Sequence record: PX418922.1
From: a phage
DNA length: 64,000 nt
Strand: one strand, 5' to 3'
The notes beneath the pieces were generated by a model. The model was not told where the DNA came from. It did not search any database and was given only the letters and a program-made list of their open reading frames with translations. A program made the translations under genes and the position numbers. Positions 27,921-37,950 of the stretch are shown here, one piece after another (the first letter of the stretch is position 1; every line of letters starts with the position of its first letter).

Positions 27921-27967
27921 AAAAATTTATGCAGATGGGAATGAGAAGAGTTCTCATGTGGAAATGC

Positions 27968-28046
27968 AAATGATAATGATTCGCATTTAGGTTTATAAAT
28001 GAGATTGATTCTTATTTAATAAAGTAAATGATAATCATTCTCATTT
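27968..28046. promoter_or_regulatory. three Fur-box-like palindromic sites
   Basis: AAATGATAATGATTCGCATTT, AAATGAGATTGATTCTTATTT, AAATGATAATCATTCTCATTT; core GATAATCATTCTC is 1 mismatch from the Fur-box 3' 13-mer. Confidence 0.4.
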
Positions 28047-28304
28047 AGAGAATGACGCGCAGGGGCGGTGTTTGTCTCGCGCTCCCGTGTCCCCTCGCCA
28101 TGTACTAAGAATAACAGATCCAGCCAGGAAAGCAAGCGATTATTTTATCTTTACATTTCTTTACAAATATATAGCGCCCAGCCTACCGGCGATCAACCTT
28201 CCAACCAGTGCCCCTGGTATGTTAGCCCCGCCTTTACGCCGTGGGGTGGCGCTTCCTCTTCTGTATGTAAAACAGTATAAGCCCTATCCCTGGGCTTGTC
28301 AAGA

Positions 28305-28571
28305 TTATTTTTTGTTTTCTTGCCAGGTCAGGACACCTAGCCAAAAATGAATATCACCTTTTCCCCAATGTGGTATATTGCTTTCTTTCCCACCTTCACG
28401 CGCCCAGGTAAAACCGCCCGTGTAACTTTGTAATTGATAACTATCCTCGACCTTATAATCTGATAGGTTGAGAACGGTTTCAACCTTTAAGCCCGTTGCG
28501 CTTGCTACCTGGTGCACCGTGCCGCCTTGCCAGCCCAATGAGTGCATAAGATGTAATGTAGTATTTGTCAT
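28305..28571 (-). CDS. hypothetical protein (88 aa), GC-rich
   Basis: ORF track; AAGGG upstream; lies in an otherwise non-coding stretch, so uncertain. Confidence 0.3.
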   Translation of the reverse strand: MTNTTLHLMHSLGWQGGTVHQVASATGLKVETVLNLSDYKVEDSYQLQSYTGGFTWAREGGKESNIPHWGKGDIHFWLGVLTWQENKK

Positions 28572-28680
28572 GGTGTCGCCCTTTCTTTGTTGTGCGCCCT
28601 GGTTGGCGCGGTAGAAAGATGATAGCCCTTTCCTTTATATATAGCAAGCAAAAAGAAAATAAAAAAGATTGAAAAAGTGG

Positions 28681-28738
28681 TTGACGTTCGCCAGGTGGCG
28701 GCATAATATTTACCACGTAGCGCGGCAATGGTGCCGCT
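28681..28738 (+). promoter_or_regulatory. island promoter + 5' leader hairpin (P1)
   Basis: TTGACG-N17-TAATAT-TTACCAC-GTAG then hairpin GCGGCA-ATGG-TGCCGC. Confidence 0.55.
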
Positions 28739-28758
28739 CACTATTTGGAGTTAAGATC

Positions 28759-28956
28759 ATGGCAACATTGCACATTGTGGCGAAAGCTGGACAAATCAAC
28801 GTAATAGTAAACGGTTTTACTGAGTTCAGTCATCCCCAGGATGATCATGAAACGGTTTTATCTTTCATTGATTCCCTGTTAGAAATGGGAGTCATTACAG
28901 AAGACCAGCACGCTACAAAATGCAAGCGCGTTAATCAAATTGCAGGGATAGAATAA
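28759..28956 (+). CDS. island small protein (65 aa)
   Basis: ATG after GGAG; ORF-track frame trimmed so the start is downstream of the leader hairpin. Confidence 0.5.
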   Translation: MATLHIVAKAGQINVIVNGFTEFSHPQDDHETVLSFIDSLLEMGVITEDQHATKCKRVNQIAGIE

Positions 28957-28962
28957 AAAGTA

Positions 28963-29017
28963 TTGACAACAAACAACAACCTGATAAGATGTATCACATA
29001 GGGGCGACAAGCGCCCC
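28963..29017 (+). promoter_or_regulatory. island promoter + 5' leader hairpin (P2)
   Basis: TTGACA-N16-TAAGAT-GTATCAC-ATAG then hairpin GGGGCG-ACAA-GCGCCCC. Confidence 0.55.
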
Positions 29018-29041
29018 GCCTAACAGAAGAGAGAAATCATC

Positions 29042-29314
29042 ATGGCATCATATAGCGCAACAATGATCGTAACTGGCACCACTGGTAAACCTATGAGCGG
29101 TGGCGGATCTTTCGCTAATATTAATATTGACGGGCGCTTATCCCTGGACGCAGCGATCACCGTGGCGCGGGAAACATTTAAGAAAGAATGTAAATTCAAT
29201 AAACAAGATTATCTCGGTTTCGCTATTGAAAAAACCGCGCGCTTTGTTGATTATAAAAGCCCGAAAATGGTTGATACTACACTGAAAGCGCAAGATGTAG
29301 CCTTTTTGCTTTAA
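29042..29314 (+). CDS. island small protein (90 aa), Gly-rich N-terminus
   Basis: ORF track; AGAGAGA RBS. Confidence 0.55.
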   Translation: MASYSATMIVTGTTGKPMSGGGSFANINIDGRLSLDAAITVARETFKKECKFNKQDYLGFAIEKTARFVDYKSPKMVDTTLKAQDVAFLL

Positions 29315-29317
29315 GGC

Positions 29318-29371
29318 TTGACATTAACGAATAATTTGTTAATATGTTACATAAAGCGGGAATAGTTCCCG
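29318..29371 (+). promoter_or_regulatory. island promoter + 5' leader hairpin (P3)
   Basis: TTGACA-N16-TAATAT-GTTACAT then hairpin GCGGGAA-TAG-TTCCCGC. Confidence 0.55.
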
Positions 29372-29390
29372 CTATTTGTAAGGTGGTAGA

Positions 29391-29648
29391 ATGTTTTACA
29401 TCAAATTAAAAGGTCACGTGATCGCGTTCAAAGATAACGCTTTTTACAGATTAGCAAAATATGCGTTAATACATCCCCACTATGTTTATATAAGGGGGCG
29501 TGATGAAATAAATATTTTTGATCAAACAACATGCGAAAACATCGAGATCCGCAAGGTTGGCGTACGTGATTATCGTACATCTTTCTACCCTTGCAAGGAT
29601 TCAGCAAGTCTTTTTAAAGTATGCCAATTGTTGAAAAAAGGTGGTTAA
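29391..29648 (+). CDS. island small protein (85 aa)
   Basis: ORF track. Confidence 0.55.
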   Translation: MFYIKLKGHVIAFKDNAFYRLAKYALIHPHYVYIRGRDEINIFDQTTCENIEIRKVGVRDYRTSFYPCKDSASLFKVCQLLKKGG

Positions 29649-29649
29649 T

Positions 29650-30207
29650 ATGGGCCGCGAATATGTGATCCAGTCTTGGGTAAAACATGAAGCAGATGAT
29701 CCGCGCATCATTCCCGATCATCTTATCGATGAATCCACGGGATATAGCGGTGAGCAAATAGGTAACAGATTAGCACGTAGTAACGGCAACGTAAAAGCGC
29801 GTTATGTGCGCCCTGGCTGGCTGGCAAATGGTAACGCTGATTTATCCAGTGCGGAAGATGCGAGCGACGGCGCGAAAGATAATCCTTTGTACAAAATTGA
29901 TCCGGCTTTTCGTGTCCTGGATGAATACCCCAGCAAGATAGCGGCGCTCGATCAGGCCCTGGAAAGTAAGCGCATCACCTGGACCGCTTACAACATGGCA
30001 AAAAACGTACTTGATGGTAAATTGATTCAAGCTGAAAGAAAATTAGCCAAAATTGCAGCCATAACCCAGGAGGAAGACGAGGAGACAACGGAAGAGGAAG
30101 AGTACGAAGAGATCCCGCCGTTGTTGTGTGTTGATGCTTTCCCTGATTATCAGCCGACAGAGGAAGAAAAAAGGATCGCACTAGAAAACTTTGAAAATAG
30201 TCTTTGA
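29650..30207 (+). CDS. island protein with acidic C-terminal tail (185 aa)
   Basis: ATG after AAAGGTGG; C-terminus EEDEETTEEEEYEE; no own promoter. Confidence 0.5.
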   Translation: MGREYVIQSWVKHEADDPRIIPDHLIDESTGYSGEQIGNRLARSNGNVKARYVRPGWLANGNADLSSAEDASDGAKDNPLYKIDPAFRVLDEYPSKIAALDQALESKRITWTAYNMAKNVLDGKLIQAERKLAKIAAITQEEDEETTEEEEYEEIPPLLCVDAFPDYQPTEEEKRIALENFENSL

Positions 30208-30260
30208 CATATCGCCGCCACTGGCATAATATTTACCACGTAGGGCGGCAATGGTGCCGC
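30204..30260 (+). promoter_or_regulatory. island promoter + 5' leader hairpin (P4)
   Basis: TTGACA-N17-ATAATA-TTTACCAC-GTAG then GCGGCA-ATGG-TGCCGC. Confidence 0.55.
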
Positions 30261-30289
30261 TCATAGTGAAATTATGCAAGAGGTTTGCA

Positions 30290-30385
30290 ATGATTAATAA
30301 AGAAAATAGCTTGACGGTTGGAACGATTAACGCTATCATTCTTGCCGTTCCATTTTGGATTGTATTAGCGGCTATTATTTTCTAA
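30290..30385 (+). CDS. hydrophobic micro-protein (31 aa)
   Basis: MINKENSLTVGTINAIILAVPFWIVLAAIIF; only coding capacity downstream of P4. Confidence 0.35.
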   Translation: MINKENSLTVGTINAIILAVPFWIVLAAIIF

Positions 30386-30394
30386 AAAATATTC

Positions 30395-30455
30395 TTGACA
30401 ACGTTTTTTAATCTGATAAGATGTATCACATAGGGCGGCGGAATACTTCCCCGCC
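30395..30455 (+). promoter_or_regulatory. island promoter + 5' leader hairpin (P5)
   Basis: TTGACA-N16-TAAGAT-GTATCAC-ATAG then GGCGG..GGAA-TAC-TTCC.CCGCC. Confidence 0.55.
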
Positions 30456-30476
30456 AAAACAAAAAAGGGTAACACA

Positions 30477-30839
30477 ATGAGCAAGCAAATCAATACTATC
30501 ATGTTTAATCTGGTATCTTTCCGCGATGATATGAAAAATTTACCACGTGAAACGGTTGATATTCATGTTTCAGCTTATCGCGCCCTTATTGATATGTTAC
30601 CGCTAAAACGTGATCAACATGCCGCTAATATGATGCTTAATGCTATGCTTAAAAAGATGATTCAAACGGATCTCACCCTGGCGTATGAGTATCAAGGGCG
30701 CTTATATGCAACTTACAACAAGGCGGTACCTGGTCTGGGAAGTACCGAAGAGTTGCACGGCTTAAACCTGGATCAAAACACTTGGGATAGTATGCGCCGC
30801 GTTATGGTATGGGCCGAAAGCGGTAAAATTTACGAATAA
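30477..30839 (+). CDS. island small protein (120 aa)
   Basis: ORF track. Confidence 0.55.
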   Translation: MSKQINTIMFNLVSFRDDMKNLPRETVDIHVSAYRALIDMLPLKRDQHAANMMLNAMLKKMIQTDLTLAYEYQGRLYATYNKAVPGLGSTEELHGLNLDQNTWDSMRRVMVWAESGKIYE

Positions 30840-30844
30840 AAACG

Positions 30845-30902
30845 GTTGACATTGTTTAAAATTCTAGTATAGTTTACCACATAGGGCGGGAAGTGGTTTC
30901 CC
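30845..30902 (+). promoter_or_regulatory. island promoter + 5' leader hairpin (P6)
   Basis: TTGACA-N16-TATAGT-TTACCAC-ATAG then GCGGGAA-GTGG-TTTCCCGC. Confidence 0.55.
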
Positions 30903-30927
30903 GCCAACAATGAAAAAGGTTATCATC

Positions 30928-31293
30928 ATGGCTATTAATATTAATGTTTCCGCTTATGCTACCCTGGCTAACACGGCTAAAATTGAATTATCCAGCATTG
31001 AGGCGGTGCATATTAGCGCCCGTCGCTGGTTTCAACGGTCCTACGGTAACACATATTTTTCTTTAATGGTTGACGTTGAGATCGGCGGTAAACTGATCGA
31101 GGTGGTTAACGTTCCGTTTCAATATGGCTATGGTGATCATTTTGATACCGTCGCCCTAGAAGAGTTTAGCAAGGTTATCAACCTGGAAGGTAAAGAGTTT
31201 TCAAATTATGCCTACCTTTCCCGTTTTTGCCGTGACAATGGGATCACTGTATACAGTCATGCGAGCGATGTAAAACGTAAAAAAGATTTATAA
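30928..31293 (+). CDS. island small protein (121 aa)
   Basis: Second in-frame ATG chosen (AAAAAGG upstream); the first ATG abuts the hairpin. Confidence 0.5.
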   Translation: MAININVSAYATLANTAKIELSSIEAVHISARRWFQRSYGNTYFSLMVDVEIGGKLIEVVNVPFQYGYGDHFDTVALEEFSKVINLEGKEFSNYAYLSRFCRDNGITVYSHASDVKRKKDL

Positions 31294-31299
31294 AAAGCA

Positions 31300-31360
31300 T
31301 TGACAGCACGAATAAAAAGAGTAAACTGTATTACATAGAGAGCGGGAACACTTCCCGCCT
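31300..31360 (+). promoter_or_regulatory. island promoter + 5' leader hairpin (P7)
   Basis: TTGACA-N17-TAAACT-GTATTAC-ATAG then GCGGGAA-CAC-TTCCCGC. Confidence 0.55.
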
Positions 31361-31382
31361 CACTGAAAAAGAGAGAAAAATC

Positions 31383-31622
31383 ATGGCTAAATCTAAAATG
31401 TACAACGGTCACAAAAACAAAACTCATTGGAATGTAAGCCTTTGGATTAATAACGATGAATCGTTATACCGGTTGGCCCAAGATTTTATTAACGCTAATG
31501 CTAATCGTAATGATGCGGCGCGGGATATGATGCTTTTTCTGGAACAAACTGGACAAGATAAAACGCCAGACGGTTTCAAATATAGCACTACTGCGATCCG
31601 TGCCGCGATGGTTGGAATGTAA
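31383..31622 (+). CDS. island small protein (79 aa)
   Basis: ORF track. Confidence 0.55.
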   Translation: MAKSKMYNGHKNKTHWNVSLWINNDESLYRLAQDFINANANRNDAARDMMLFLEQTGQDKTPDGFKYSTTAIRAAMVGM

Positions 31623-31631
31623 TAAAAACAG

Positions 31632-31689
31632 TTGACAACGTTTAAAATTAGTGTAAGATGTATCACATAGGGCGGGAAGTGGTTTCCCG
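31632..31689 (+). promoter_or_regulatory. island promoter + 5' leader hairpin (P8)
   Basis: TTGACA-N16-TAAGAT-GTATCAC-ATAG then GCGGGAA-GTGG-TTTCCCGC. Confidence 0.55.
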
Positions 31690-31712
31690 CCAAAACAAAG
31701 AGATTAAAGATT

Positions 31713-31940
31713 ATGGCTATCAATATTGTTCGCGTATCCGGCACCGTTGGCACTTCCCAGGTTATTGCAGTTGTAACAAACAAAAAGATTAATGATGTAT
31801 GTGAGATCTTGAATAAGTGGGCTATTGCTAATTTTGGGGAATATGCAAGCGTCGAGTACATCGAATCCTACCAGGTGCCAACCATCAGCCTAACCGATCT
31901 CAACGTTGATCGCCTGTTATGCCTGGATGAATTGATCTGA
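31713..31940 (+). CDS. island small protein (75 aa)
   Basis: ORF track. Confidence 0.55.
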   Translation: MAINIVRVSGTVGTSQVIAVVTNKKINDVCEILNKWAIANFGEYASVEYIESYQVPTISLTDLNVDRLLCLDELI

Positions 31941-31949
31941 AAAAGATTG

Positions 31950-32006
31950 TTGACACCGGAAAGAAAAAGAGTAAACTGTATTACGTAGGGCGGCAATGGT
32001 GCCGCT
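31950..32006 (+). promoter_or_regulatory. island promoter + 5' leader hairpin (P9)
   Basis: TTGACA-N17-TAAACT-GTATTAC-GTAG then GCGGCA-ATGG-TGCCGC. Confidence 0.55.
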
Positions 32007-32030
32007 CACAACAAAAGAGAGATTATTACG

Positions 32031-32243
32031 ATGGCTAATATCCGCACACTGTTAAAAAATGCAAGTCAAGTTTTATTTTCAGATGACGAGTATTTCAATA
32101 AAGACATTACAGGCGTGAAGAATATCAAAGATGTAAAAAGTGTTATGGGTATATATTGCAATGTTAAACGTGTTGGAACGTTCGGTGATAAAGTATTGTA
32201 CCAATCAGGTGATTACAATTTTACTTTGACGATTATTTCATAA
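32031..32243 (+). CDS. island small protein (70 aa)
   Basis: ORF track. Confidence 0.55.
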   Translation: MANIRTLLKNASQVLFSDDEYFNKDITGVKNIKDVKSVMGIYCNVKRVGTFGDKVLYQSGDYNFTLTIIS

Positions 32244-32248
32244 AACGC

Positions 32249-32310
32249 TTGCAATACTGCAAAAATAAAGTAAACTGTATTACATCAAGGCGGCGGAATG
32301 GTCCACCGCC
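32249..32310 (+). promoter_or_regulatory. island promoter + 5' leader hairpin (P10)
   Basis: TTGCAA-N16-TAAACT-GTATTAC-ATCAA then GGCGGCGGA-ATGG-TCCACCGCC. Confidence 0.5.
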
Positions 32311-32334
32311 TAACAAAGAGAAGAGGAAAATATC

Positions 32335-32502
32335 ATGATCACTTTCGCTACCCGTGAAGCCGCTCGCAACGTTGCACGTAAAGTTAACGCCGCCAACCTG
32401 GGCGCTACTTTTAAAGCGCCTGTAAAAGATGAATCAGGAAAATGGATCTTCCCTGGTCTGCGTCACGCTGATAAGCTAGGCACTTTAAGCCTTAAAAAAT
32501 AA
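32335..32502 (+). CDS. island small protein (55 aa)
   Basis: Read manually (MITFATREAARNVARK...); AGAGAAGAGG upstream; shares MITFA N-terminus with the next gene. Confidence 0.4.
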   Translation: MITFATREAARNVARKVNAANLGATFKAPVKDESGKWIFPGLRHADKLGTLSLKK

Positions 32503-32505
32503 TCG

Positions 32506-32540
32506 TTGACTTTTCGTTATAGCGCCCATTATAAGGCGCT
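32506..32540 (+). promoter_or_regulatory. island promoter with variant hairpin (P11)
   Basis: TTGACT then hairpin AGCGCC-CATTATAA-GGCGCT; -10 element unclear. Confidence 0.35.
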
Positions 32541-32576
32541 ATAGAGAAGAGAAACCACTACTAACAAGGAAACATC

Positions 32577-32798
32577 ATGATCACTTTCGCTATTGTCGCC
32601 GTTGTCGCTGGTCAGGTTTACGTAAACGATACATTCACCACAGAAGACAAGGCCGCAGGAGACATAACCGCCGTTTACAATGAGTGCAAGGCAGTAGAAA
32701 GGATGTTAGCGCCTTGTATGTTAATGAGTGAACGCCAGGACGGGATAACAGTGTTTACTAACATTGAAACAGGGTACCAAATGGTAGTAACAAAATAA
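32577..32798 (+). CDS. island small protein (73 aa), hydrophobic N-terminus
   Basis: ORF track. Confidence 0.5.
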   Translation: MITFAIVAVVAGQVYVNDTFTTEDKAAGDITAVYNECKAVERMLAPCMLMSERQDGITVFTNIETGYQMVVTK

Positions 32799-32801
32799 AG
32801 C

Positions 32802-32858
32802 TTGACACGGATTTAATTTTCAGTAAACTGTTACACGTAGGGCGGGAATAGTTCCCGC
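32802..32858 (+). promoter_or_regulatory. island promoter + 5' leader hairpin (P12)
   Basis: TTGACA-N16-TAAACT-GTTACAC-GTAG then GCGGGAA-TAG-TTCCCGC. Confidence 0.55.
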
Positions 32859-32876
32859 TAAAAAGAGAGAAAGACC

Positions 32877-33230
32877 ATGAAAGCACAAAATGCAATTAAA
32901 GAGTACATCCTTGCCGCTATCGATTTTAATGATTACGGTATTACAACCGAAAAAGAGAAGATCGCGGAATTGATGCGCCGTTTTAATTCCGAGTACTGGT
33001 ACCCTGATAATCAATCACGTTTTAATTATAGTATTGTTAAAGCACTTGCATCATGGTTACAAGGCTTGCCATCAGATATTAATATAGCTTTCGAATATTG
33101 GGAAATTGATCGTTTGTTAACATCCTGGGGATACATTAAAGAGAATAGCAGCGATGATAAAATCCAACGAGAAAGGGAAAATTATTGGCTTTATATTGCA
33201 GGCGTGATCCTTGCTTGCTCTTATGAATGA
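32877..33230 (+). CDS. island small protein (117 aa)
   Basis: ORF track. Confidence 0.55.
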   Translation: MKAQNAIKEYILAAIDFNDYGITTEKEKIAELMRRFNSEYWYPDNQSRFNYSIVKALASWLQGLPSDINIAFEYWEIDRLLTSWGYIKENSSDDKIQRERENYWLYIAGVILACSYE

Positions 33231-33236
33231 TAAACC

Positions 33237-33289
33237 TTGACAATTTTACAAAACAGTTTAAATTAATAATATAGCGGCAATGGTGCCGC
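33237..33289 (+). promoter_or_regulatory. island promoter + 5' leader hairpin (P13)
   Basis: TTGACA-N16-TAAATT then GCGGCA-ATGG-TGCCGC. Confidence 0.5.
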
Positions 33290-33309
33290 TCATATAAAGA
33301 GGAAACAAA

Positions 33310-33456
33310 ATGAATACATCTAATCGCGCAGAAAAAATTCAATCTTCCAAGATCCGCAAGGCCTGGAATGAGGAAGTGATCCGCAAAGGCGACAAGCGCA
33401 ATAAAACAAAGCGCGGGAAGAGTGACAAATATAATTGGATGGATTTAGAGGATTAA
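33310..33456 (+). CDS. highly basic micro-protein (48 aa)
   Basis: Read manually (MNTSNRAEKIQSSKIRKAW...KRNKTKRGKSDKYNW); terminator follows. Confidence 0.4.
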   Translation: MNTSNRAEKIQSSKIRKAWNEEVIRKGDKRNKTKRGKSDKYNWMDLED

Positions 33457-33464
33457 CATAACAA

Positions 33465-33490
33465 GGGCGCACCAAGCGCCCTTTCTTTTT
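33465..33490 (+). terminator. intrinsic terminator
   Basis: GGGCGC-ACCAA-GCGCCC then TTTCTTTTT. Confidence 0.65.
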
Positions 33491-33511
33491 ACATGTAGAG
33501 GATAAACAAAA

Positions 33512-33697
33512 ATGACTTTAAACGAGCTTAAAACAGCCTATAACGCAACATTAAAAATAGCCGTGCGTTACCGTGACGAATACGGTTTTATTGCGCAGGG
33601 CGTGATCCTGGGCTTTTCTGACGATGGTTTGATCTATGTTGATGCACATCACAACAAGGTTAAACCGGAAAACGTTATCAGTATAAAATATCTTTAA
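33512..33697 (+). CDS. island small protein (61 aa)
   Basis: ORF track; GAGGATAA upstream. Confidence 0.45.
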   Translation: MTLNELKTAYNATLKIAVRYRDEYGFIAQGVILGFSDDGLIYVDAHHNKVKPENVISIKYL

Positions 33698-33703
33698 AAG
33701 TGG

Positions 33704-33760
33704 TTGACACCATAACCGGACCTGTTAAACTGTATTACATCAGGCGGGGAATAGTTCCCC
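33704..33760 (+). promoter_or_regulatory. island promoter + 5' leader hairpin (P14)
   Basis: TTGACA-N16-TAAACT-GTATTAC-ATCAG then GGGGAA-TAG-TTCCCC. Confidence 0.55.
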
Positions 33761-33783
33761 AACCATACAAAAAGGTAAATATT

Positions 33784-33990
33784 ATGATCACCGCAAAACA
33801 AGAAAAAATCATTATCGACGTTGCAGCCGTTGCCGCTATTGCTATTATTGGATCTTATTATGATACCCGTTTCCCGTCGGCTATGCATGAGATCGCCGCC
33901 GTTGCATCAGTTGGCGTGCTGTTTTACGTTGGTAAACGCTATTTATCACCAATGATTAACAAGCTGACACCGTGGAAAAATAAAGGTTGA
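33784..33990 (+). CDS. island small membrane protein (68 aa)
   Basis: Start moved downstream of hairpin; hydrophobic AAVAAIAIIG segment. Confidence 0.5.
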   Translation: MITAKQEKIIIDVAAVAAIAIIGSYYDTRFPSAMHEIAAVASVGVLFYVGKRYLSPMINKLTPWKNKG

Positions 33991-34041
33991 TCCTGTTTTA
34001 TATTGTGTTATAGTTATCGTGTAGGGCGGCAATGGTGCCGC
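33987..34041 (+). promoter_or_regulatory. island promoter + 5' leader hairpin (P15)
   Basis: TTGATC-N16-TATAGT-TATCGT-GTAG then GCGGCA-ATGG-TGCCGC. Confidence 0.5.
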
Positions 34042-34061
34042 GCCCCTTTGAGGATGCAATC

Positions 34062-34346
34062 ATGAGTAAAGCTAACACCGTGCTAATGTTTTCCCTGATT
34101 AATGATCCCGCTTACTTGTCCAACATGACGCAGGAGGGTAACACATTAACGGCAACATTCACCAATAAGCTTGACCGAGTGATCATCATCTCACTGAAAA
34201 CAGTTAGTAAAGGCTTTTACTCGTTAGCTTATCATTGGATCACTGATACCGATGAGACAAGCCAGGACTATAGCGCCCCTTTCCCTGAATCAATGGCACG
34301 GGAGATCATCGCCGCCGTTGTAAATGATGGTTTGTTTACTGCATAA
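34062..34346 (+). CDS. island small protein (94 aa)
   Basis: Start moved to ATG downstream of hairpin. Confidence 0.5.
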   Translation: MSKANTVLMFSLINDPAYLSNMTQEGNTLTATFTNKLDRVIIISLKTVSKGFYSLAYHWITDTDETSQDYSAPFPESMAREIIAAVVNDGLFTA

Positions 34347-34363
34347 ATAATTTAGAAAAAGGC

Positions 34364-34422
34364 TTGCAATCATTTTGAGATAGTGTATATTTAATTCATA
34401 GGGCGGCGGGAATAGTTCCCAA
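34364..34422 (+). promoter_or_regulatory. island promoter + 5' leader hairpin (P16)
   Basis: TTGCAA-N16-TATATT-TAATTC-ATAG then GGGAA-TAG-TTCCC. Confidence 0.5.
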
Positions 34423-34443
34423 AGCAAACGAGAGGATTACACG

Positions 34444-34563
34444 ATGAGCAAGTACACAGTAGAATACACGGTAGAGAATCCGGCAGTATCCGAAGGTAAA
34501 AAGATGACATTTGCCATCAGTATAATCGCTTTCGTTGTCACTATCTTATCAATCATCTTATAA
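34444..34563 (+). CDS. hydrophobic micro-protein (39 aa)
   Basis: Read manually (MSKYTVEYTVENPAVSEGKKMTFAISIIAFVVTILSIIL). Confidence 0.35.
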   Translation: MSKYTVEYTVENPAVSEGKKMTFAISIIAFVVTILSIIL

Positions 34564-34573
34564 GGTACACACC

Positions 34574-34735
34574 ATGAAAATAACAGACATTATCAAAGAG
34601 ATCGCCCTTGCCGCTGGCGTTGAAGTCGAGGAAGTGATCGCGCTCAATCTTACAGAAAACGATCTGCGCAACTATGAAGCGGAAAGCGTGAAAGCAAGCG
34701 GCGCGGTCCTGGTATATGATCCGGCTAACAAGTAA
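34574..34735 (+). CDS. island small protein (53 aa)
   Basis: Start moved to MKITDII... Confidence 0.4.
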   Translation: MKITDIIKEIALAAGVEVEEVIALNLTENDLRNYEAESVKASGAVLVYDPANK

Positions 34736-34744
34736 GGGGGTAAC

Positions 34745-34855
34745 ATGAATCCGAAAGATATGCAAGCATGGAAAGGGTACGACGATCTAAGCGCCTTGCG
34801 CAATAAGTCAAGCCGTAACTTTAGACGGTTGGAAGCAAAGAAAAAGAAAAAATAG
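34745..34855 (+). CDS. basic micro-protein (36 aa)
   Basis: Read manually (MNPKDMQAWKGYDDLSALRNKSSRNFRRLEAKKKKK); GGGGG upstream. Confidence 0.35.
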   Translation: MNPKDMQAWKGYDDLSALRNKSSRNFRRLEAKKKKK

Positions 34856-34856
34856 T

Positions 34857-34912
34857 TTGACAAGTCCGCCTAGTCTGATAATATGTATCTTGTAGGGCGG
34901 CAATGGTGCCGC
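34857..34912 (+). promoter_or_regulatory. island promoter + 5' leader hairpin (P17)
   Basis: TTGACA-N16-TAATAT-GTATCTT-GTAG then GCGGCA-ATGG-TGCCGC. Confidence 0.55.
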
Positions 34913-34933
34913 TCACAAGAAGAGAGAAAAATC

Positions 34934-35218
34934 ATGAAAATTACAAAAAGCCTAACTAATTATGCAGCACGTCGCGGATTATGTTTAACCGTTGAAAACT
35001 TAGGGAAAGAAGACTTTTTGTGTTTTTGGGAGCTTGAGAATGATTGCGAGTGGATGTTTTCTTATTCTATCTGCGAAGATCAAAACGGTTGTTTGTTAAC
35101 CTGGCGCGGTAATATCTATTTACCGGAAGAAATTAAAGAAGAGTTACCAGGTACGATCATGACAGAGAGACAGCTTAAGGAAGTGATCAATTTTGTAGGG
35201 CAAAACATTAAAAAATAA
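34934..35218 (+). CDS. island small protein (94 aa)
   Basis: Start moved downstream of hairpin; AGAGAGA RBS. Confidence 0.5.
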   Translation: MKITKSLTNYAARRGLCLTVENLGKEDFLCFWELENDCEWMFSYSICEDQNGCLLTWRGNIYLPEEIKEELPGTIMTERQLKEVINFVGQNIKK

Positions 35219-35219
35219 T

Positions 35220-35280
35220 TTGACAGCAGGCAAACAACGTAGTAAAGTTTACCACATAGGGCGGCGGAATGGTCCACCGC
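35220..35280 (+). promoter_or_regulatory. island promoter + 5' leader hairpin (P18)
   Basis: TTGACA-N17-TAAAGT-TTACCAC-ATAG then GGCGGCGGA-ATGG-TCCACCGC. Confidence 0.55.
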
Positions 35281-35303
35281 TCACAACAGAAGAGAAACAA
35301 ATC

Positions 35304-35474
35304 ATGATCCCGACTATGTTTTATGTATCGCGCAAAGGTCACAATATTTTTTGGTCTGAAGATTTAAATGAAGCTATGACGTTTGCCCGTGATCGTGTTG
35401 CTATCGGTGGCGTTAACATCACCGTAACCGATGAAAATGGCATTGAATACTATAACGGCGACGATGAAGAATAA
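35304..35474 (+). CDS. island small protein (56 aa)
   Basis: Start moved to MIPTMFYV... Confidence 0.45.
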   Translation: MIPTMFYVSRKGHNIFWSEDLNEAMTFARDRVAIGGVNITVTDENGIEYYNGDDEE

Positions 35475-35479
35475 TTAAT

Positions 35480-35512
35480 GAGGCGGGGGAGTATTCCCCG
35501 CCGTCAATAAAG
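35480..35512 (+). promoter_or_regulatory. orphan leader-type hairpin with no recognisable promoter
   Basis: GGCGGGGGA-GTA-TTCCCCGCC immediately ahead of the RBS of 35522. Confidence 0.4.
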
Positions 35513-35521
35513 AGGTAAATC

Positions 35522-35791
35522 ATGAAAATATCATTAGACGTTGCAATCAAGGCCATCGAATCCGGTTACACCCTGGTAAAAGATGATAAGGCTAAAACCG
35601 TGCACCACGTTAACAAAGAAACAGGCGAAAGCATGATCACATATAAAGCCGCCTACTTTCTCCAATCAGTAGCAGATCCGCGCGTACAACGCCAGGTTAC
35701 AGCGGCTATTGCTAAAAAATTATGTGCTTTACAGGGCACAAGTTTTAACGAGATCGCCCCGTGTTTTGACTGGTCGAGCTTGAAAAAATAG
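35522..35791 (+). CDS. island small protein (89 aa)
   Basis: ORF track. Confidence 0.5.
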   Translation: MKISLDVAIKAIESGYTLVKDDKAKTVHHVNKETGESMITYKAAYFLQSVADPRVQRQVTAAIAKKLCALQGTSFNEIAPCFDWSSLKK

Positions 35792-35792
35792 T

Positions 35793-35845
35793 TTGACAAC
35801 AATTATAAATCGGGTAGAATGTATTTCGTAGGGCGGGGCAATGGT
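35793..35845 (+). promoter_or_regulatory. island promoter with degenerate hairpin (P19)
   Basis: TTGACA-N16-TAGAAT-GTATTTC-GTAG then GGGCGGGGCAATGGTGCAACGCC. Confidence 0.45.
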
Positions 35846-35872
35846 GCAACGCCTACTAATGAGGGTAAAATC

Positions 35873-35977
35873 ATGTTAGAGAAAATTTTCACGGTTGTAG
35901 TAGTGGGCCTGGTGTTATCGGTTGGAGTGGTTGCAACTATGGCTAACATGATCCTATCTTCCCACGGTATTGGATAA
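35873..35977 (+). CDS. hydrophobic micro-protein (34 aa)
   Basis: Read manually (MLEKIFTVVVVGLVLSVGVVATMANMILSSHGIG). Confidence 0.35.
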   Translation: MLEKIFTVVVVGLVLSVGVVATMANMILSSHGIG

Positions 35978-35987
35978 GGTGAATCAA

Positions 35988-36203
35988 ATGATCACGAATA
36001 AGACAGGTAAAACAGAATTTTTACGCGCCTTGCAGATCGGCAAGCCTGAGATCTGGCATTGCACTAAATCCGCGCATAATGAAATGAAAGATTTTACCGC
36101 TACTTTACAACGTGTTAAAATATCTATCACACAGAAAAAAGCCTTGTTAGTAGTAGAAAACGAGATCCCGCAAACTATTATTATTGTCGAGCGTACAGCA
36201 TGA
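35988..36203 (+). CDS. island small protein (71 aa)
   Basis: Start moved from TTG to the in-frame ATG. Confidence 0.45.
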   Translation: MITNKTGKTEFLRALQIGKPEIWHCTKSAHNEMKDFTATLQRVKISITQKKALLVVENEIPQTIIIVERTA

Positions 36204-36586
36204 AAACAGAAATCATTATTGAAATCATCAACGGTTATAAAGAAGCCTTTATTTTTGCTGAATCAGCAAGGGATCATGAAGGTAATTTTATTGATAACTT
36301 AGACGATTATGATTTTTCTCCTAGCGTGGATCAACGGATCGCCCAGGATGTAACAGCCTTTATTAATGCTAATCTTGCCGCTATCTCTGAGGCAATGAGC
36401 GACGGCGCAACAGCCAACCAGATCGGGAATGATTTACATTTTACCCGTAACGGTCACGGCGTAGGCTTTTGGGATCGCCCTGAAATATACACCACTAACA
36501 CGGCGAACCGCCTAACCAATGCAGCTAAGTTTATGCCGAACGTGTCGGCTTACATTGGTGAAGATAATTTGATTTATATTGAATAA
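36200..36586 (+). CDS. island small protein (128 aa)
   Basis: ORF track; ATGA coupling. Confidence 0.5.
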   Translation: MKTEIIIEIINGYKEAFIFAESARDHEGNFIDNLDDYDFSPSVDQRIAQDVTAFINANLAAISEAMSDGATANQIGNDLHFTRNGHGVGFWDRPEIYTTNTANRLTNAAKFMPNVSAYIGEDNLIYIE

Positions 36587-36592
36587 AAAGTA

Positions 36593-36650
36593 TTGACACC
36601 GATCCCCAATATGGTACTATTTACCACGTAGGCGGGAAATGGTTTCCCGC
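36593..36650 (+). promoter_or_regulatory. island promoter + 5' leader hairpin (P20)
   Basis: TTGACA-N16-TACTAT-TTACCAC-GTAG then GCGGGAA-ATGG-TTTCCCGC. Confidence 0.55.
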
Positions 36651-36674
36651 CAGGTAATCAAAAAGGTAAATACT

Positions 36675-37064
36675 ATGCGCAACCTGGTTTCTGTTTCTAA
36701 CGTTGAAAAATTTCAATCTTTACAGGGTATCGTTAACAACGTAGCGCCTTTTTTAGTCAACGGCTTGATTGCAAAGATGAAAAATAAACATCATGCGGCA
36801 TGGTCTGCTTACTGCTTTGATAATGATGAAAAAGCGGCTGAAATGATGTTAAATATGCTGTTAGACAGTGTAGAATCATCTTTACCGGAAAACATCGCAG
36901 AAGAGATCACCTATCGTTATAATATGGCGATCACTTACCAGGAGGTTGCGCAATTTAATATGATGGACGATGACGAACAACAGGATCAGGAAATGTTTTG
37001 GGAGTATGCTGATCGTCAATCGGCTTTTGATGAAAAATTAGCGATGTATTATAACGAATATTAA
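36675..37064 (+). CDS. island small protein (129 aa)
   Basis: Start moved downstream of hairpin. Confidence 0.5.
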   Translation: MRNLVSVSNVEKFQSLQGIVNNVAPFLVNGLIAKMKNKHHAAWSAYCFDNDEKAAEMMLNMLLDSVESSLPENIAEEITYRYNMAITYQEVAQFNMMDDDEQQDQEMFWEYADRQSAFDEKLAMYYNEY

Positions 37065-37080
37065 TACACGGTAAAAGAAA

Positions 37081-37105
37081 GGGGCGCACTAAGCGCCCTT
37101 TTTTG
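37081..37105 (+). terminator. intrinsic terminator
   Basis: GGGCGC-ACTAA-GCGCCC then TTTTTTG. Confidence 0.65.
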
Positions 37106-37448
37106 TATTCTTTTTTCACGATGGAAACAACACGTAAAGAATAGGCGTAAAGGTGGCGTAAAACCATCTAAAACCGACTGTAACCGCTTAAACAAGGTAG
37201 GAATGATTAATCACCTTGCCAGGATGAAAAAGCCGTTATAAAGCTATCTAGAGCGTTTAAAGCACATAGGAAATAATTTGCTTTTTATCTTGCCTTTTAC
37301 CCTGCTTTTGATTATTATTATGGAACGGGCGGCACCTGGAGACAGGGGAAGATAATCACCGGAAGATCCCGCTATATATTGATAGCTAATACCTATTAAA
37401 CAACAAAACATCAAAGGAATAAACTATCAAATCTTTACAATTCTACCT

Positions 37449-37495
37449 ATTGACACCGGATCGCCCTTATACTAAGATGTATCACGTAGGGCAAA
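37449..37495 (+). promoter_or_regulatory. island promoter without clear hairpin (P21)
   Basis: TTGACA-N17-TAAGAT-GTATCAC-GTAGGGC; hairpin degenerate. Confidence 0.45.
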
Positions 37496-37524
37496 TGATT
37501 TTAAACGGTAAACGAGGAATCACC

Positions 37525-37908
37525 ATGAGCAATATCATCAACCTGGCAGCGACTGTAAACGGTAAAGACTTTAACGGCGCTGTAGACCGTGATCCTATGT
37601 GGTACTTGTCAGTGTTTAAAGGCGATCTGGTTGAAGTTAGAACAACCGAAGGGTATAGCGATGATTATAAATGCGAGATTCATTTACATAATTGGTACAC
37701 GGGTAAAACTTATGCGCTGAATCACGCGTTTATCGGAAAAATCGAATATCGTGAGATGATCGACGAAGAAACGGGGCAAGATTTTAGCGAAAACGTTTAT
37801 ATTCGTTCCGAGACATTAGCCGAACGTTTGATCGAGAAAATGAAAGCAAAAAATAAAATTAATTTATCTCATTGGATTGATATAACAAACGATCCAGCTT
37901 ATCAGTAA
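37525..37908 (+). CDS. island small protein (127 aa)
   Basis: Start moved to MSNIINLAAT... Confidence 0.5.
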   Translation: MSNIINLAATVNGKDFNGAVDRDPMWYLSVFKGDLVEVRTTEGYSDDYKCEIHLHNWYTGKTYALNHAFIGKIEYREMIDEETGQDFSENVYIRSETLAERLIEKMKAKNKINLSHWIDITNDPAYQ

Positions 37909-37924
37909 ATAACATTTCATACCA

Positions 37925-37950
37925 GGGCGCACAAAGCGCCCTTTCTTTTT
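37925..37950 (+). terminator. intrinsic terminator closing the island
   Basis: GGGCGC-ACAAA-GCGCCC then TTTCTTTTT. Confidence 0.65.

Follow-up and report, generated by a model that had tools for sequence, protein, structure and literature searches.

A compositionally distinct island of promoter-hairpin gene cassettes, a putative immediate-early module, in a Phapecoctavirus genome

Results

An island of short genes departs in composition from its flanks

We find that an island of short genes in a 64,000-nucleotide stretch of phage DNA (PX418922.1; hereafter the window) is compositionally distinct from the two arms that flank it, as the first-pass annotation had proposed, weakly so in total G+C but strongly in GC3, CpG and dinucleotide distance. 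The reading that we favor, and consider moderately probable, is that the island is resident phage DNA, an immediate-early (possibly pre-early) host-takeover module whose composition is set by constraints of the host machinery. Judging from 94-97% identity to Phapecoctavirus genomes, the window is from a Phapecoctavirus (phAPEC8-like) coliphage, a myovirus. Genes in island and arms were called heuristically, with an ORF picker, and do not come from a curated annotation; island genes that match protein families fall in every case into phage-only PHROG families, and a search of the island for integrase, tRNA and mobility genes found none, nor was there any tRNA gene in the window. The island, ~10 kb or 7% of the phage genome, is 25% non-coding.

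Island and boundary features (strand given where assigned):
27500-28053: non-coding stretch rich in AT and in repeats, at the inner island boundary (GC 29% in 27501-28000)
27718-27789 and 27856-27927: two 72-nt direct repeats within that stretch
27967-28053: three tandem 29-nt palindromic boxes, core AATGAnAATCATTCTCATT
28054-28300: conserved GC-rich non-coding element of ~230 nt at the start of the GC step, a candidate cis element or small RNA
28305-28571, - strand: 88-aa ORF (phrog_19316), a CDS in the tuntematon annotation, transcribed away from the island array
28681-37950, + strand: island as given, with ~28 short genes (31-185 aa), ~21 promoter cassettes and 3 intrinsic terminators
37525-37908, + strand: last island gene, T4 gp30.8 family (Pfam Phage_30_8, E = 7e-29)
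37951-39500: non-coding, A-rich terminal region that retains the island CpG signature
38989 and 39168: two further palindromic boxes, in the terminal region

The total-GC step is real, but amounts to only ~2.5-3 points, with 40.9% in the island compared to 38.5% and 38.7% in the left and right arms. Of all 9.27-kb windows in the sequence (mean 38.9%, sd 0.74), the one with the highest GC, 41.4%, begins at 28001. One-kb bins average 0.412 ± 0.017 within the island and 0.385 ± 0.018 beyond it (p = 3e-4, Mann-Whitney), and a GC segmentation with two boundaries fits best at 28051-36550 (41.8% vs 38.5%). Steps had been anticipated at ~28.1 and 37.9 kb; the left one is sharp, at ~28.05 kb, where GC rises to 45% in 28001-28500, but the right boundary is gradual, with GC falling from ~37 kb and the CpG signature persisting to ~39-40.2 kb. 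A string quoted earlier as an example of G+C-rich sequence has no exact copy, its nearest match (31018-31041) carrying two mismatches. GC3 is 41.4% in the 28 island genes vs 32.0% and 31.6% in the left and right arms (p = 5e-9), and is at most 35.3% in any other contiguous 28-gene block; GC2 is equal in island and arms, and GC1 slightly lower in the island.

Synonymous codons shift towards the host and away from phage tRNAs

Codon choices in the island are host-like, as had been read by eye: island RSCU correlates with that of 34 ordinary E. coli genes at r = 0.57, arm RSCU at r = 0.10, the shift from arms to island is directed towards E. coli (Spearman 0.78, p = 2e-13), and the codon-adaptation index, another proposed check, is higher in the island (0.628 vs 0.556). 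The distance from host DNA nonetheless remains large (GC3 0.41 vs 0.55 in E. coli). Preferred codons are CGC, GGC, AGC, CCG, GCG, GCC and ATC, while the A-ending codons AGA, GGA, CCA, ATA, ACA and CAA, favored in the bulk genome, are avoided. The two-fold NNY families (Asp, His, Asn, Tyr, Phe) show no shift to E. coli-preferred C-ending codons, which argues against simple selection for host-optimal codons, since this would move those families as well. The phage tRNA set, taken from a 95%-identical relative rather than from the window, comprises Arg-UCU, Gly-UCC, Pro-UGG, Gln-UUG, Thr-UGU, Ile-GAU, Asn-GUU, Ser-GCU and two CAU, and A-ending codons cognate to these tRNAs account for 21.7% of their families in the island vs 32.9% in the arms (p = 3e-9). 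Published work documents that codon usage differs between early and late phage genes and that phage tRNAs are used late in infection (PMC5683454, PMC12482277).

The dinucleotide signature extends to all codon positions and to non-coding DNA

The tetranucleotide comparison of island and arms gives the strongest signal of all tests: TUD correlation with the rest of the window is 0.13 for the island and ~0.8 for other windows. The dinucleotide distance δ* of the island is 0.157 to the rest of the window and 0.167 to its own arms (other blocks, 0.02-0.06), more than the 0.087 that separates it from E. coli. Its profile is high in CpG and GpC and low in GGAG; GCGC, CGCC and CCGC, the hairpin motifs, are strongly enriched, with GCGC (observed/expected 3.4) overshooting E. 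coli (1.55). CpG observed/expected forms a plateau of 1.15-1.31 across 28 to 39 kb, compared to 0.44-0.97 elsewhere. The CpG difference is seen at all three codon positions, with codon-boundary (position 3|1) CpG at 1.20 in the island vs 0.70 in the arms, and also in non-coding DNA, where the hairpin-masked island holds 55 CpG against 55.3 expected, a small sample, and arm intergenic DNA 83 against 115 expected. Matching to tRNAs explains neither the codon-boundary nor the non-coding CpG excess.

Nearly every gene or small gene group has its own promoter, most with a 5' hairpin

Sigma-70-like sites number 52 in the island vs 26 ± 5 expected, and 29 vs 26.5 in a flank. Some 21 near-consensus sigma-70 promoters serve the island genes, such that nearly every gene, pair or triplet has its own, and in most cases the predicted mRNA carries a stable, GC-rich hairpin within 0-5 nt of its 5' end.

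Cassettes and terminators (all + strand):
28681-28741: cassette 1, TTGACG-N17-TAATAT then hairpin GCGGCAATGGTGCCGC; serves gene 28759-28956
28963-29019: cassette 2, TTGACA-N16-TAAGAT then hairpin GGGGCG..CGCCCC (-13.6 kcal/mol, z = -3.0); serves gene 29042-29314
29318-29374: cassette 3; serves genes 29391-29648 and 29650-30207
30204-30262: cassette 4, hairpin GGGCGGCAATGGTGCCGCTC; serves 31-aa ORF 30290-30385
30395-30456: cassette 5; serves gene 30477-30839
30846-30906: cassette 6; serves gene 30928-31293; also a breakpoint relative to tuntematon
31300-31361: cassette 7; serves gene 31383-31622 (Pfam DUF7249)
31632-31692: cassette 8; serves gene 31713-31940
31950-32009: cassette 9; serves gene 32031-32243
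32249-32311: cassette 10, -35 element TTGCAA; serves gene 32335-32502
32506-32550: variant cassette 11 as read from the sequence, TTGACT, hairpin TAGCGCC..GGCGCTA overlapping the -10 region; serves gene 32577-32798
32802-32859: cassette 12; serves gene 32877-33230
33237-33292: cassette 13; serves gene 33310-33456
33461-33490: intrinsic terminator, AAGGGCGCACCAAGCGCCCTT then a T run
33704-33765: cassette 14; serves gene 33784-33990
33987-34046: cassette 15, TTGATC-N16-TATAGT then GGGCGGCAATGGTGCCGC; serves gene 34062-34346
34364-34425: cassette 16, TTGCAA-N16-TATATT; serves genes 34444-34563, 34574-34735 and 34745-34855
34857-34916: cassette 17; serves gene 34934-35218
35220-35283: cassette 18; serves gene 35304-35474
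35483-35506: additional hairpin upstream of gene 35522-35791
35793-35856: cassette 19, TTGACA-N16-TAGAAT; serves genes 35873-35977, 35988-36203 and 36200-36586
36593-36652: cassette 20; serves gene 36639/36675-37064
37076-37107: intrinsic terminator
37450-37492: promoter 21, TTGACA-N17-TAAGAT without a strong hairpin; serves gene 37525-37908
37921-37950: intrinsic terminator closing the array

A strict promoter-plus-hairpin pattern matches 17 times in the array (28681-36593, + strand) and at only two other places in the window, 7149 and 28331, both on the - strand. Each of twelve predicted 5' UTRs folds into a single 5'-proximal hairpin of -12 to -18 kcal/mol that leaves the ribosome-binding site free. 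These sites, downstream of the hairpin, are AG-rich with weak Shine-Dalgarno character, GGAG or GAGG preceding 10 of 28 island genes vs 92 of 122 arm genes.

Relatives share the signature and the position but differ in part in gene content

Syntenic islands with the same signature are found in tuntematon, phi92, a Vequintavirus and a Cronobacter Certrevirus, and no second region of this kind was found in a further 100 kb of tuntematon. The CpG/GpC step and the rise in CGC, GGC and AGC are common to tuntematon, phi92, HdK5 and CR9. The islands of HdK5 and CR9 do not differ from their flanks in GC or GC3, so that the original emphasis on G+C, although the rise is real here, slightly missed the mark; what is conserved is the shift in CpG/GpC and in codons. 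The 29-nt boxes are kept in phi92, CR9 and HdK5 exactly at their CpG step. In the adjoining element (28054-28300), long runs are invariant between the window, phi92 and CR9; Rfam gave no match to it, and a consensus fold from three sequences shows little covariation.

Compared to tuntematon, the window differs by insertion, deletion and replacement of whole genes, with breakpoints at cassette boundaries. At the position of the last island gene, phi92 has gp248, and tuntematon unrelated sequence. Synteny places the genome terminus and a short direct terminal repeat at ~38.9-39.25 kb, where position 1 of the KKP 3954 and Mt1B1_P17 records corresponds to ~39155; in phi92 the right DTR lies ~1.1 kb past its gp30.8-like gene, i.e. 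past the island end, and by synteny with phi92 the island would end ~1 kb from the terminus.

T5 first-step-transfer DNA shows the same shift

T5 first-step-transfer (FST, pre-early) DNA is unrelated to the island, no protein homology being found between the two, and shows the same dinucleotide and codon shift. GC3 is 0.392 in T5 pre-early vs 0.318 in T5 early genes, and CpG observed/expected 1.1-1.5 vs 0.5-0.9. The RSCU shift vectors of T5 (pre-early vs early) and of the window (island vs arms) correlate at r = 0.81, island and FST usage at r = 0.86, and arm and T5 early usage at r = 0.88. In T7 class I genes and the SPO1 host-takeover module the step is present in weak form only, and the compositional rule is therefore not general.

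Discussion

The composition, anatomy and conservation of the island, and its convergence with T5, are direct observations; early timing of its genes is what the promoter consensus points to. With a near-consensus sigma-70 promoter for each gene or group, unmodified host RNA polymerase could transcribe the island on entry, and the GC-rich 5' hairpins may shield the transcripts from 5'-end-dependent decay by RNase E. Island genes would then be translated by the naive host apparatus, ahead of expression of a distant phage tRNA cluster that is possibly not yet in the cell, so that synonymous sites would be held near ordinary E. coli usage, the avoided A-ending codons being those that the phage tRNAs presumably read. 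We infer that such selection, together with GC-rich hairpins and terminators in abundant intergenic DNA, could yield a small rise in G+C, a large rise in GC3 and a host-like dinucleotide and tetranucleotide profile, while gene content would change cassette by cassette through recombination at the repeated promoter-hairpin units. Of the two explanations first offered, different expression constraints fit the dedicated promoters, 5' hairpins, type of ribosome-binding site, tRNA-codon avoidance and T5 pre-early convergence; separate acquisition holds only for single gene cassettes, and is not supported for the island as a block, given its conserved position and signature, a base composition that follows that of each resident genome, and phage-only families.

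That foreign DNA of host or other replicon origin was inserted between two phage arms might be read from the atypical composition, the sharp left boundary and the similar 29-nt boxes on both sides, but is largely refuted and very improbable: the island occupies the syntenic position in all relatives inspected, which span two subfamilies, matches nothing in 5,426 complete E. coli genomes whether searched in near or in distant mode, and has none of the integrase, tRNA or mobility genes sought above, while its tetranucleotide correlation with E. coli is 0.51 compared to 0.91 within E. coli. Nor does the GC excess simply add up from GC-rich spacer hairpins and terminators. These do contribute, as intergenic GC is 40.8% in the island vs 35-39% in arm spacers, and their motifs are strongly enriched; as sole cause they are refuted, and highly unlikely, as coding DNA alone differs (41.4% vs 38.9% GC), with GC3 10 points apart, and island spacers with the hairpins masked have just 30% GC.

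A rather low probability attaches to cassette-wise flux, in which small early genes circulate among enterobacterial phages, recombine at the promoter-hairpin units and are repeatedly replaced before they decay to a CpG-poor, AT3-rich equilibrium. Gene turnover at cassette boundaries agrees with it, as do relatives that cover just 69-94% of the island in 3-9 pieces, island segments with 70-80% nucleotide identity to jumbo phages, Vequintavirus, Certrevirus and 51-kb siphoviruses, the like absence of CpG depletion from non-coding island DNA, and the documented shuffling mediated by T4-type PeSL cassettes (PMC2839356, PMC4122927). However, island G+C follows the resident genome (41% here, 42-43% in HdK5, 50% in CR9), implying residence long enough for base-composition equilibrium, and T5 pre-early genes carry the same signature despite being conserved in T5-like phages (average 89% protein identity; PMC3326045); flux could maintain the signature but leaves its origin and host-ward direction unaccounted for. 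We regard as improbable a regional DNA-level process, in which mutational or repair bias depletes CpG in the bulk genome (with TpG/CpA gain) and is absent or counteracted near the terminus, as biased gene conversion at a hot spot of recombination might do. It would account for CpG of 0.73 and TpG/CpA of 1.15 in the arms vs 1.22-1.26 and ~1.0 in the island, for the difference at every codon position and in non-coding DNA, and for a CpG-defined segment (29001-40200) that extends past the presumed terminus and reaches the first genes at the opposite end; against it, no known mechanism limits such a bias to so small a part of a genome that is copied and packaged as a single molecule, the shift is specific to codon families and anti-correlated with the specificities of the phage tRNAs, and the non-coding sample is small.

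We return to the immediate-early module as the preferred reading, for which the parallel with T5 suggests the hypothesis that the island may be the first part of the genome to enter the cell.

Base and oligonucleotide composition of the island

The island (28681-37950, + strand, about 28 short genes) and its flanks share 94-97% identity with the genomes of Phapecoctavirus (KKP 3954, tuntematon, anhysbys and others), virulent myoviruses of E. coli with ~150 kb of DNA that belong to the subfamily Stephanstirmvirinae; the window contains neither tRNA genes (ARAGORN) nor Rfam families. The first-pass annotation described the island as more G+C-rich than the arms on either side, and this is borne out, with 40.9% G+C in the island against 38.5% and 38.7% in the arms, and a mean over 1-kb bins of 0.412 inside and 0.385 outside (p = 3e-4). 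We find that, among all 9.27-kb windows (mean 38.9%, s.d. 0.74), the one with the highest G+C begins at 28001 (41.4%), and that the best two-boundary G+C segment is 28051-36550. The increase in total G+C is thus genuine, yet small. Of the two steps expected at about 28.1 and 37.9 kb, the left is sharp, at ~28.05 kb for G+C, whereas the right is gradual and extends beyond 37,950. The stretch quoted as an example of island sequence has no exact copy in the window, the closest being 31018-31041 with two mismatches.

Oligonucleotide usage, the comparison proposed for separating island from arms, gives the clearest difference. Measured against the rest of the window, the island has a dinucleotide distance of 0.157 and every other window one of 0.02-0.06, and the corresponding tetranucleotide-usage correlation is 0.13 for the island and ~0.8 for the others.

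Dinucleotide representation, island versus the DNA outside it
CpG: 1.26 versus 0.73
GpC: 1.33 versus 1.02
AG/CT: 0.78 versus 1.01
TpG/CpA: 1.01 versus 1.15

Sliding CpG observed/expected (o/e) values form a plateau of 1.15-1.31 over ~28-39 kb, with 0.44-0.97 elsewhere, and the best CpG segment is 29001-40200. This segment scan used strand-symmetric CpG o/e in place of a strand-specific P(G given C) change-point scan, whose segment, 28391-51878, was confounded by strand GC skew and discarded as meaningless. The CpG difference is also present across codon boundaries (1.20 vs 0.70) and in hairpin-masked non-coding DNA, where the island has 55 CpG with 55.3 expected and the arm spacers 83 with 115 expected, and GCGC in the island overshoots the host value. 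The compositional distinctness of the island is confirmed and is much stronger than could be seen by eye; G+C is its weakest expression. Total G+C is a poor marker of the region, while CpG/GpC, GCGC, GGAG and codon-family usage are good ones.

Short palindromes also vary along the window. GATC, the Dam site, occurs at about twice the expected frequency in 28000-39000 (85 sites in 11 kb; o/e 2.13 vs 1.30 in the arms), with o/e values of 2.0-2.5 in the islands of the relatives phi92, HdK5 and CR9 and 0.71 in the first-step-transfer (FST, pre-early) DNA of phage T5. The arms (1-28000 and 39001-64000) strongly avoid CCGG, found 11 times in 53 kb (o/e 0.15), as well as GGCC (0.25), CTAG (0.28) and GTAC (0.34), and the avoidance of CCGG is relaxed in the island (o/e 0.86). 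Palindrome avoidance in the arms may reflect restriction avoidance.

Codon usage and the phage tRNA set

Genes were called with a simple ORF picker constrained by obvious strand domains. GC3 is 41.4% over the 28 island genes and 32.0 and 31.6% over the 133 genes of the two arms (p = 5e-9), in agreement with the A/T-ending codons ascribed to the arms, and 35.3% is the most reached by any other stretch of 28 adjacent genes. GC2 is equal in island and arms, and GC1 is slightly lower in the island. Chi-square tests by amino acid are significant for Arg, Gly, Ala, Ile, Ser, Pro, Thr, Leu and Cys (p from 1e-3 to 2e-13), with CGC, GGC, AGC, TGC, GCC, GCG, CCG, ACC and ATC raised in the island and AGA, CGA, GGA, CCA, CCT, AGT, TCT, CTT, GCA and ATA lowered. 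No shift is detected in the two-fold families of Asp, His, Asn, Tyr, Glu and Lys, so the shift is family-specific.

The host reference comprised E. coli K-12 loci, 34 ordinary genes and 30 ribosomal or elongation-factor genes. Relative synonymous codon usage (RSCU) of the island correlates with that of ordinary E. coli genes at r = 0.57, as compared to r = 0.10 for the arms, and the island-minus-arms vector is aligned with the E. coli-minus-arms vector (Spearman 0.78, p = 2e-13). The codon-adaptation index (CAI) is likewise higher in the island, rising from 0.556 in the arms to 0.628 against the ordinary reference and from 0.365 to 0.423 against the highly expressed one, and by dinucleotide distance the island lies nearer E. 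coli (0.087) than its own arms (0.167). It is still unlike E. coli DNA, with a GC3 of 0.41 vs 0.55 and a tetranucleotide correlation of 0.51 vs 0.91 between E. coli chunks. The description of island codons as host-like consequently holds for RSCU, CAI and the direction of the shift, and not as a full match.

The phage tRNA set was taken from tuntematon, a 95%-identical Phapecoctavirus, whose ten tRNA genes, located far from its island, are Arg-UCU, Gly-UCC, Pro-UGG, Gln-UUG, Thr-UGU, Ile-GAU, Asn-GUU, Ser-GCU and two with CAU. Within their families, the codons AGA, GGA, CCA, CAA, ACA and ATA account for 21.7% of usage in the island, compared to 32.9% in the arms (p = 3e-9). An early-versus-late partition of codon usage was reportedly noted in T4 by Cowe and Sharp in 1991. 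Such differences, with phage tRNAs serving the later genes, have already been described in virulent phages (Mioduser, Goz & Tuller 2017, PMC5683454; Ross & Doore 2025, PMC12482277). The window resembles this partition in having two gene sets of different synonymous usage, with the putatively early set nearer the host and the non-island set enriched in codons for phage tRNAs. It differs in that one set here is confined to one contiguous terminal stretch whose physical boundary is sharp, and in that the difference extends to dinucleotides, tetranucleotides, non-coding DNA and type of ribosome-binding site (RBS).

Promoter-hairpin cassettes and translation signals

The island differs from its neighbors at every layer of expression. 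One quarter of it is non-coding (arms, 6-13%), and nearly each gene, or group of two to three genes, is preceded by TTGACA-N16/17-TAnnnT, followed ~10 nt past the -10 hexamer by a GC-rich hairpin (GGGCGGCAATGGTGCCGC, GGCGGGAAnnnnTTCCCGCC and variants) and then by an AG-rich RBS; we count ~21 such promoter-hairpin cassettes. Consensus promoter matches number 52 in the island against 26 ± 5 from shuffles, and 29 against 26.5 in a flanking 10 kb. From this roughly twofold excess of sigma-70 promoters, not seen in the flank, we infer that the island is probably expressed early; a literature search found nothing specific on the transcriptome or promoters of Phapecoctavirus or Vequintavirus. A strict promoter-plus-hairpin pattern matches 17 times on the + strand of the island array (28681-36593); the rest of the window yields only two matches, both - strand, at 7149 and 28331. 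The former (7090-7149) reads TTGACA-N16-TAAGAT followed by GCGGGGAGTGGTTCCCCGC and lies upstream of a 324-aa gene (6097-7071) of ordinary arm-type composition (GC3 0.32).

Each of 12 predicted 5' UTRs folds into one hairpin of -12 to -18 kcal/mol, beginning at a distance of 0-5 nt from the predicted +1, with the RBS left free. These hairpins have no T run, and three separate canonical terminators punctuate the array. Since the hairpins are placed at the predicted mRNA 5' end and carry no U tract, they are more likely to act as 5' stabilizers than as terminators.

A GGAG/GAGG Shine-Dalgarno motif is found upstream of 92 of 122 genes in the arms and of 10 of 28 in the island (p = 1e-4), and the word GGAG itself is depleted in the island (o/e 0.35 vs 1.42; E. 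coli, 0.47). Island leaders are mostly AG-rich with a weak Shine-Dalgarno sequence (AAGAGAGAAAnATCATG, AAAGGTAAATnnATG), compared to three-quarters of arm genes that use GGAG/GAGG; independently, the phi92 annotation assigns the weakest RBS class to the phi92 island genes. The island proteins belong to PHROG families without known function, with the sole exception of a 39-aa membrane protein in the category 'moron/host takeover', and two have Pfam matches, to DUF7249 and to the T4 early protein family gp30.8.

This organization recalls the promoter-early stem-loop (PeSL) cassettes that mediate gene shuffling in the hyperplastic regions of T4-type phages (Arbiol et al. 2010, PMC2839356; Comeau et al. 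2014, PMC4122927). Common to both are an intergenic strong sigma-70-like promoter and GC-rich stem-loop repeated ahead of small ORFans, gain, loss or replacement of genes at the cassettes among relatives, and a gene of the gp30.8 family. The lineage here is different, Stephanstirmvirinae, as is the stem-loop, which sits ~10 nt past the -10 hexamer and has no U tract. The two PeSL papers, searched on GC content and codon, report no compositional island.

Genome position and boundary elements

In phi92, the syntenic array (gp225 to the gp30.8-like gp248) stops ~1.1 kb short of the annotated right direct terminal repeat (DTR), which is 343 bp long and lies outside the island, and position 1 of several Phapecoctavirus records maps to ~39,155 in the window. 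On these two grounds the island corresponds to the last ~10 kb (~7%) of one genome end. By synteny, it is transcribed towards the genome terminus, and the end itself is predicted to lie within the A-rich non-coding DNA of 38-39.5 kb. The elements at the two edges are as follows.

27500-28300, inner boundary: AT-rich non-coding DNA with 72-nt direct repeats, three palindromic 29-nt boxes and then a ~230-nt GC-rich element
27967-28053: three tandem copies of the 29-nt box (core AATGAnAATCATTCTCATT)
28054-28300: the ~230-nt GC-rich non-coding element, directly after the boxes
38040-38420: long A-rich, C-containing low-complexity non-coding DNA with repeated AACAACAAAC-type units (AT skew +0.22), separating the last terminator from the presumed genome end
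38989-39017 and 39168-39196: fourth and fifth copies of the 29-nt box

The inner boundary element is kept in phi92, in Vequintavirus HdK5 and in Cronobacter phage CR9, and in each it coincides exactly with the switch in composition. The palindromic boxes, three at the inner island edge and two in the presumed terminal-repeat region opposite, are conserved in the same three phages. A reading of the boxes as Fur boxes was rejected, as a single site falls within three mismatches (16/19 of the E. coli consensus) and 8 of 100 shuffles do equally well. The GC-rich element at 28054-28300 has long invariant runs shared by the window, phi92 and the 50%-GC CR9, is better conserved than most island genes and has no Rfam match; a three-sequence consensus fold finds almost no covariation support for a structured RNA. 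Candidate roles for it are a small RNA and a cis-acting element of the boundary or of replication.

Conservation and gene turnover among relatives

The composition step is also present in tuntematon, phi92 (Justusliebigvirus), HdK5 (Vequintavirus) and CR9 (Certrevirus). In all four, CGC, GGC and AGC are raised 1.5-3-fold, CpG is raised at all three codon positions, island CAI is higher and codons cognate to phage tRNAs are fewer. The GC3 step is not conserved (+9.6 points in the window, +8.3 in phi92, +2.9 in HdK5 and -3.4 in CR9, the last two not significant), and overall island G+C follows the resident genome, at 41% in the window and 50% in CR9. Base composition has thus equilibrated while the dinucleotide and codon bias was retained, which argues against recent acquisition as a block and for a persistent region-specific constraint. 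No 2-kb window across a further 100 kb of tuntematon has a CpG o/e above 1. Highly expressed late genes, e.g., the major head gene, have a high CAI and lack the CpG signature, and the island signature is therefore not simply an effect of expression level.

Separate acquisition had been one of two explanations suggested for the island, and the region does resemble horizontally acquired islands or morons in its atypical composition, its own promoters and terminators, and its accessory genes without known function. It is unlike them in that its position and signature are conserved across two subfamilies: the island is syntenic in all relatives examined, contains no integrase, tRNA gene or mobility gene, shows no similarity to a donor, and has no BLAST match, near or distant, among 5,426 complete E. 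coli genomes. We consider a horizontally acquired genomic island very unlikely, and rejected host-derived DNA, on the absence of any E. coli match, as well as a tRNA cluster as the cause of a GC-rich block with apparent ORF gaps (no tRNA by ARAGORN, nothing in Rfam). Acquisition as a block is disfavored by the conserved position and signature and by the G+C equilibrated with resident genomes; at a finer scale acquisition is real, as seen in whole-gene insertions and replacements relative to tuntematon whose ends fall at cassettes. These breakpoints map to 30935, 32557, 34734, 35528/35783, 36643/37295 and 37492/37925, at the resolution of BLAST HSP ends. The gp30.8-family gene at 37525-37908 closes the island in both the window and phi92 and is occupied by unrelated sequence in tuntematon (13943-15235); the preceding gene (36639-37064) is likewise replaced in this otherwise 95%-identical phage.

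Segments of the island are 70-80% nucleotide-identical in jumbo phages, Certrevirus and 51-kb siphoviruses. The parts at 30421-32245 and 35025-35159 show 70-76% identity to the ~350-kb jumbo coliphages G17, SHEFM2K, JNE01 and Turkey5, and also to the 51-kb siphoviruses and to Klebsiella jumbo phage Muenster, in which the matching sequence falls inside the predicted terminal repeat. Such sharing suggests that unrelated phage families exchange small early genes.

Comparison with T5 first-step-transfer DNA

The FST DNA of T5, its first 10.2 kb, enters alone, and its pre-early genes are expressed ahead of the arrival of the remaining genome, all tRNA genes included (T5 annotation; PMC13250531). 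We find that CpG o/e is 1.06-1.49 and GpC 1.36-1.67 in this DNA, and 0.5-0.9 and ~1.0-1.2 after the injection-stop signal; pre-early and early genes differ in GC3 (0.392 vs 0.318) and CAI (0.615 vs 0.540). The composition step of T5 (1-10219) falls at the injection-stop signal, with a GC3 of 39% vs 32%. The T5 shift in RSCU correlates with the island-minus-arms vector at r = 0.81, and RSCU itself matches island to T5 FST (0.86) and arms to T5 early genes (0.88), with cross-comparisons at 0.51-0.55. GCGC o/e is 3.36 vs 0.62 in T5 and 3.44 vs 0.69 in the window; GCGC is also the core of the T5 nick consensus, according to the T5 record's own notes. When 17 T5 pre-early proteins were compared by phmmer with the products of every window ORF, none matched at E <= 1, and neither A1 nor A2 is found. 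With no shared proteins and yet matching RSCU and GCGC, two unrelated coliphages have converged on the same two regimes of codon and oligonucleotide usage. The literature searched holds no report that T5 FST DNA is compositionally distinct.

The parallel extends to layout. Both segments are ~7-8% of the genome at a terminus and carry small genes of host takeover, putative in the island, behind strong sigma-70 promoters; both have an inner boundary of repeat- and palindrome-rich non-coding DNA (27500-28300 in the window, conserved across genera and a candidate counterpart of the T5 injection-stop region); and in both GC3 is up by 7-10 points, CpG o/e is ~1.2-1.5 vs 0.6-0.9, and GGAG is low. The differences are the lack of protein homology, a GATC enrichment in the island that is absent from T5, and, going by phi92 with its 343-bp DTR, the placement of the island outside any ~10-kb terminal repeat. 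To our knowledge, no two-step injection is known for rV5-like or phAPEC8-like phages. As controls, the host-transcribed class I region of T7 is weakly shifted, and the shift in the terminal host-takeover module of SPO1, whose entire genome is CpG-poor, is marginal; we therefore claim no universal rule.

Discussion

Different expression constraints, the other explanation suggested at first pass, are favored by the persistence of the signature across relatives and, most strongly, by the convergence with T5, where the host-like regime is that of DNA shown to work alone in a naive cell. On balance, we think it likely that the island serves as a compartment for host takeover, immediate-early or pre-early in timing, in which coding and regulatory sequences would be tuned to the transcription, mRNA decay and translation machinery of the unmodified host and genes would turn over by cassette. 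Selection for tRNA matching does not explain the CpG difference across codon boundaries and in non-coding DNA, the GCGC overshoot or the unshifted NNY two-fold families. Gene flux from a shared early-gene pool and a regional bias at the DNA level may each contribute, as rivals to the tuning of a host-takeover compartment or as co-factors in it.

A bolder proposal, which we consider doubtful, is that the island is a functional analogue of T5 FST DNA, i.e., an FST-like, first-acting segment. The rV5-, phi92- and phAPEC8-like myoviruses would then deliver their terminal ~10 kb first, or at least express it in isolation, and the conserved palindrome and repeat element at 27.5-28.3 kb would serve as a pause or boundary signal. 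The shared signature, rich in CpG, GpC and GCGC, poor in GGAG and free of codons that depend on phage tRNAs, would mark DNA needed before the remaining phage genome and its tRNAs are available. We found no report of the sharp CpG/GCGC step, of its conservation in Stephanstirmvirinae and Vequintavirinae, or of its identity with the T5 FST signature, and these features motivate the FST-like hypothesis. If it is true, pre-early segments in coliphages would be predictable from sequence alone.

On the favored reading, a vague 'GC-rich island' becomes a defined expression compartment in understudied therapeutic coliphages (Phapecoctavirus, Justusliebigvirus and Vequintavirinae). Its ~28 genes are apparently needed in the first minutes of infection, and this makes them prime candidates for host-takeover and anti-defense functions. 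The near-identical T5 FST signature suggests a sequence-only route to pre-early DNA in tRNA-bearing coliphages, and the T5 parallel suggests a testable hypothesis of ordered genome entry in rV5-like phages. The island also offers a natural test bed for any time-dependent effect of phage tRNAs on codon usage.
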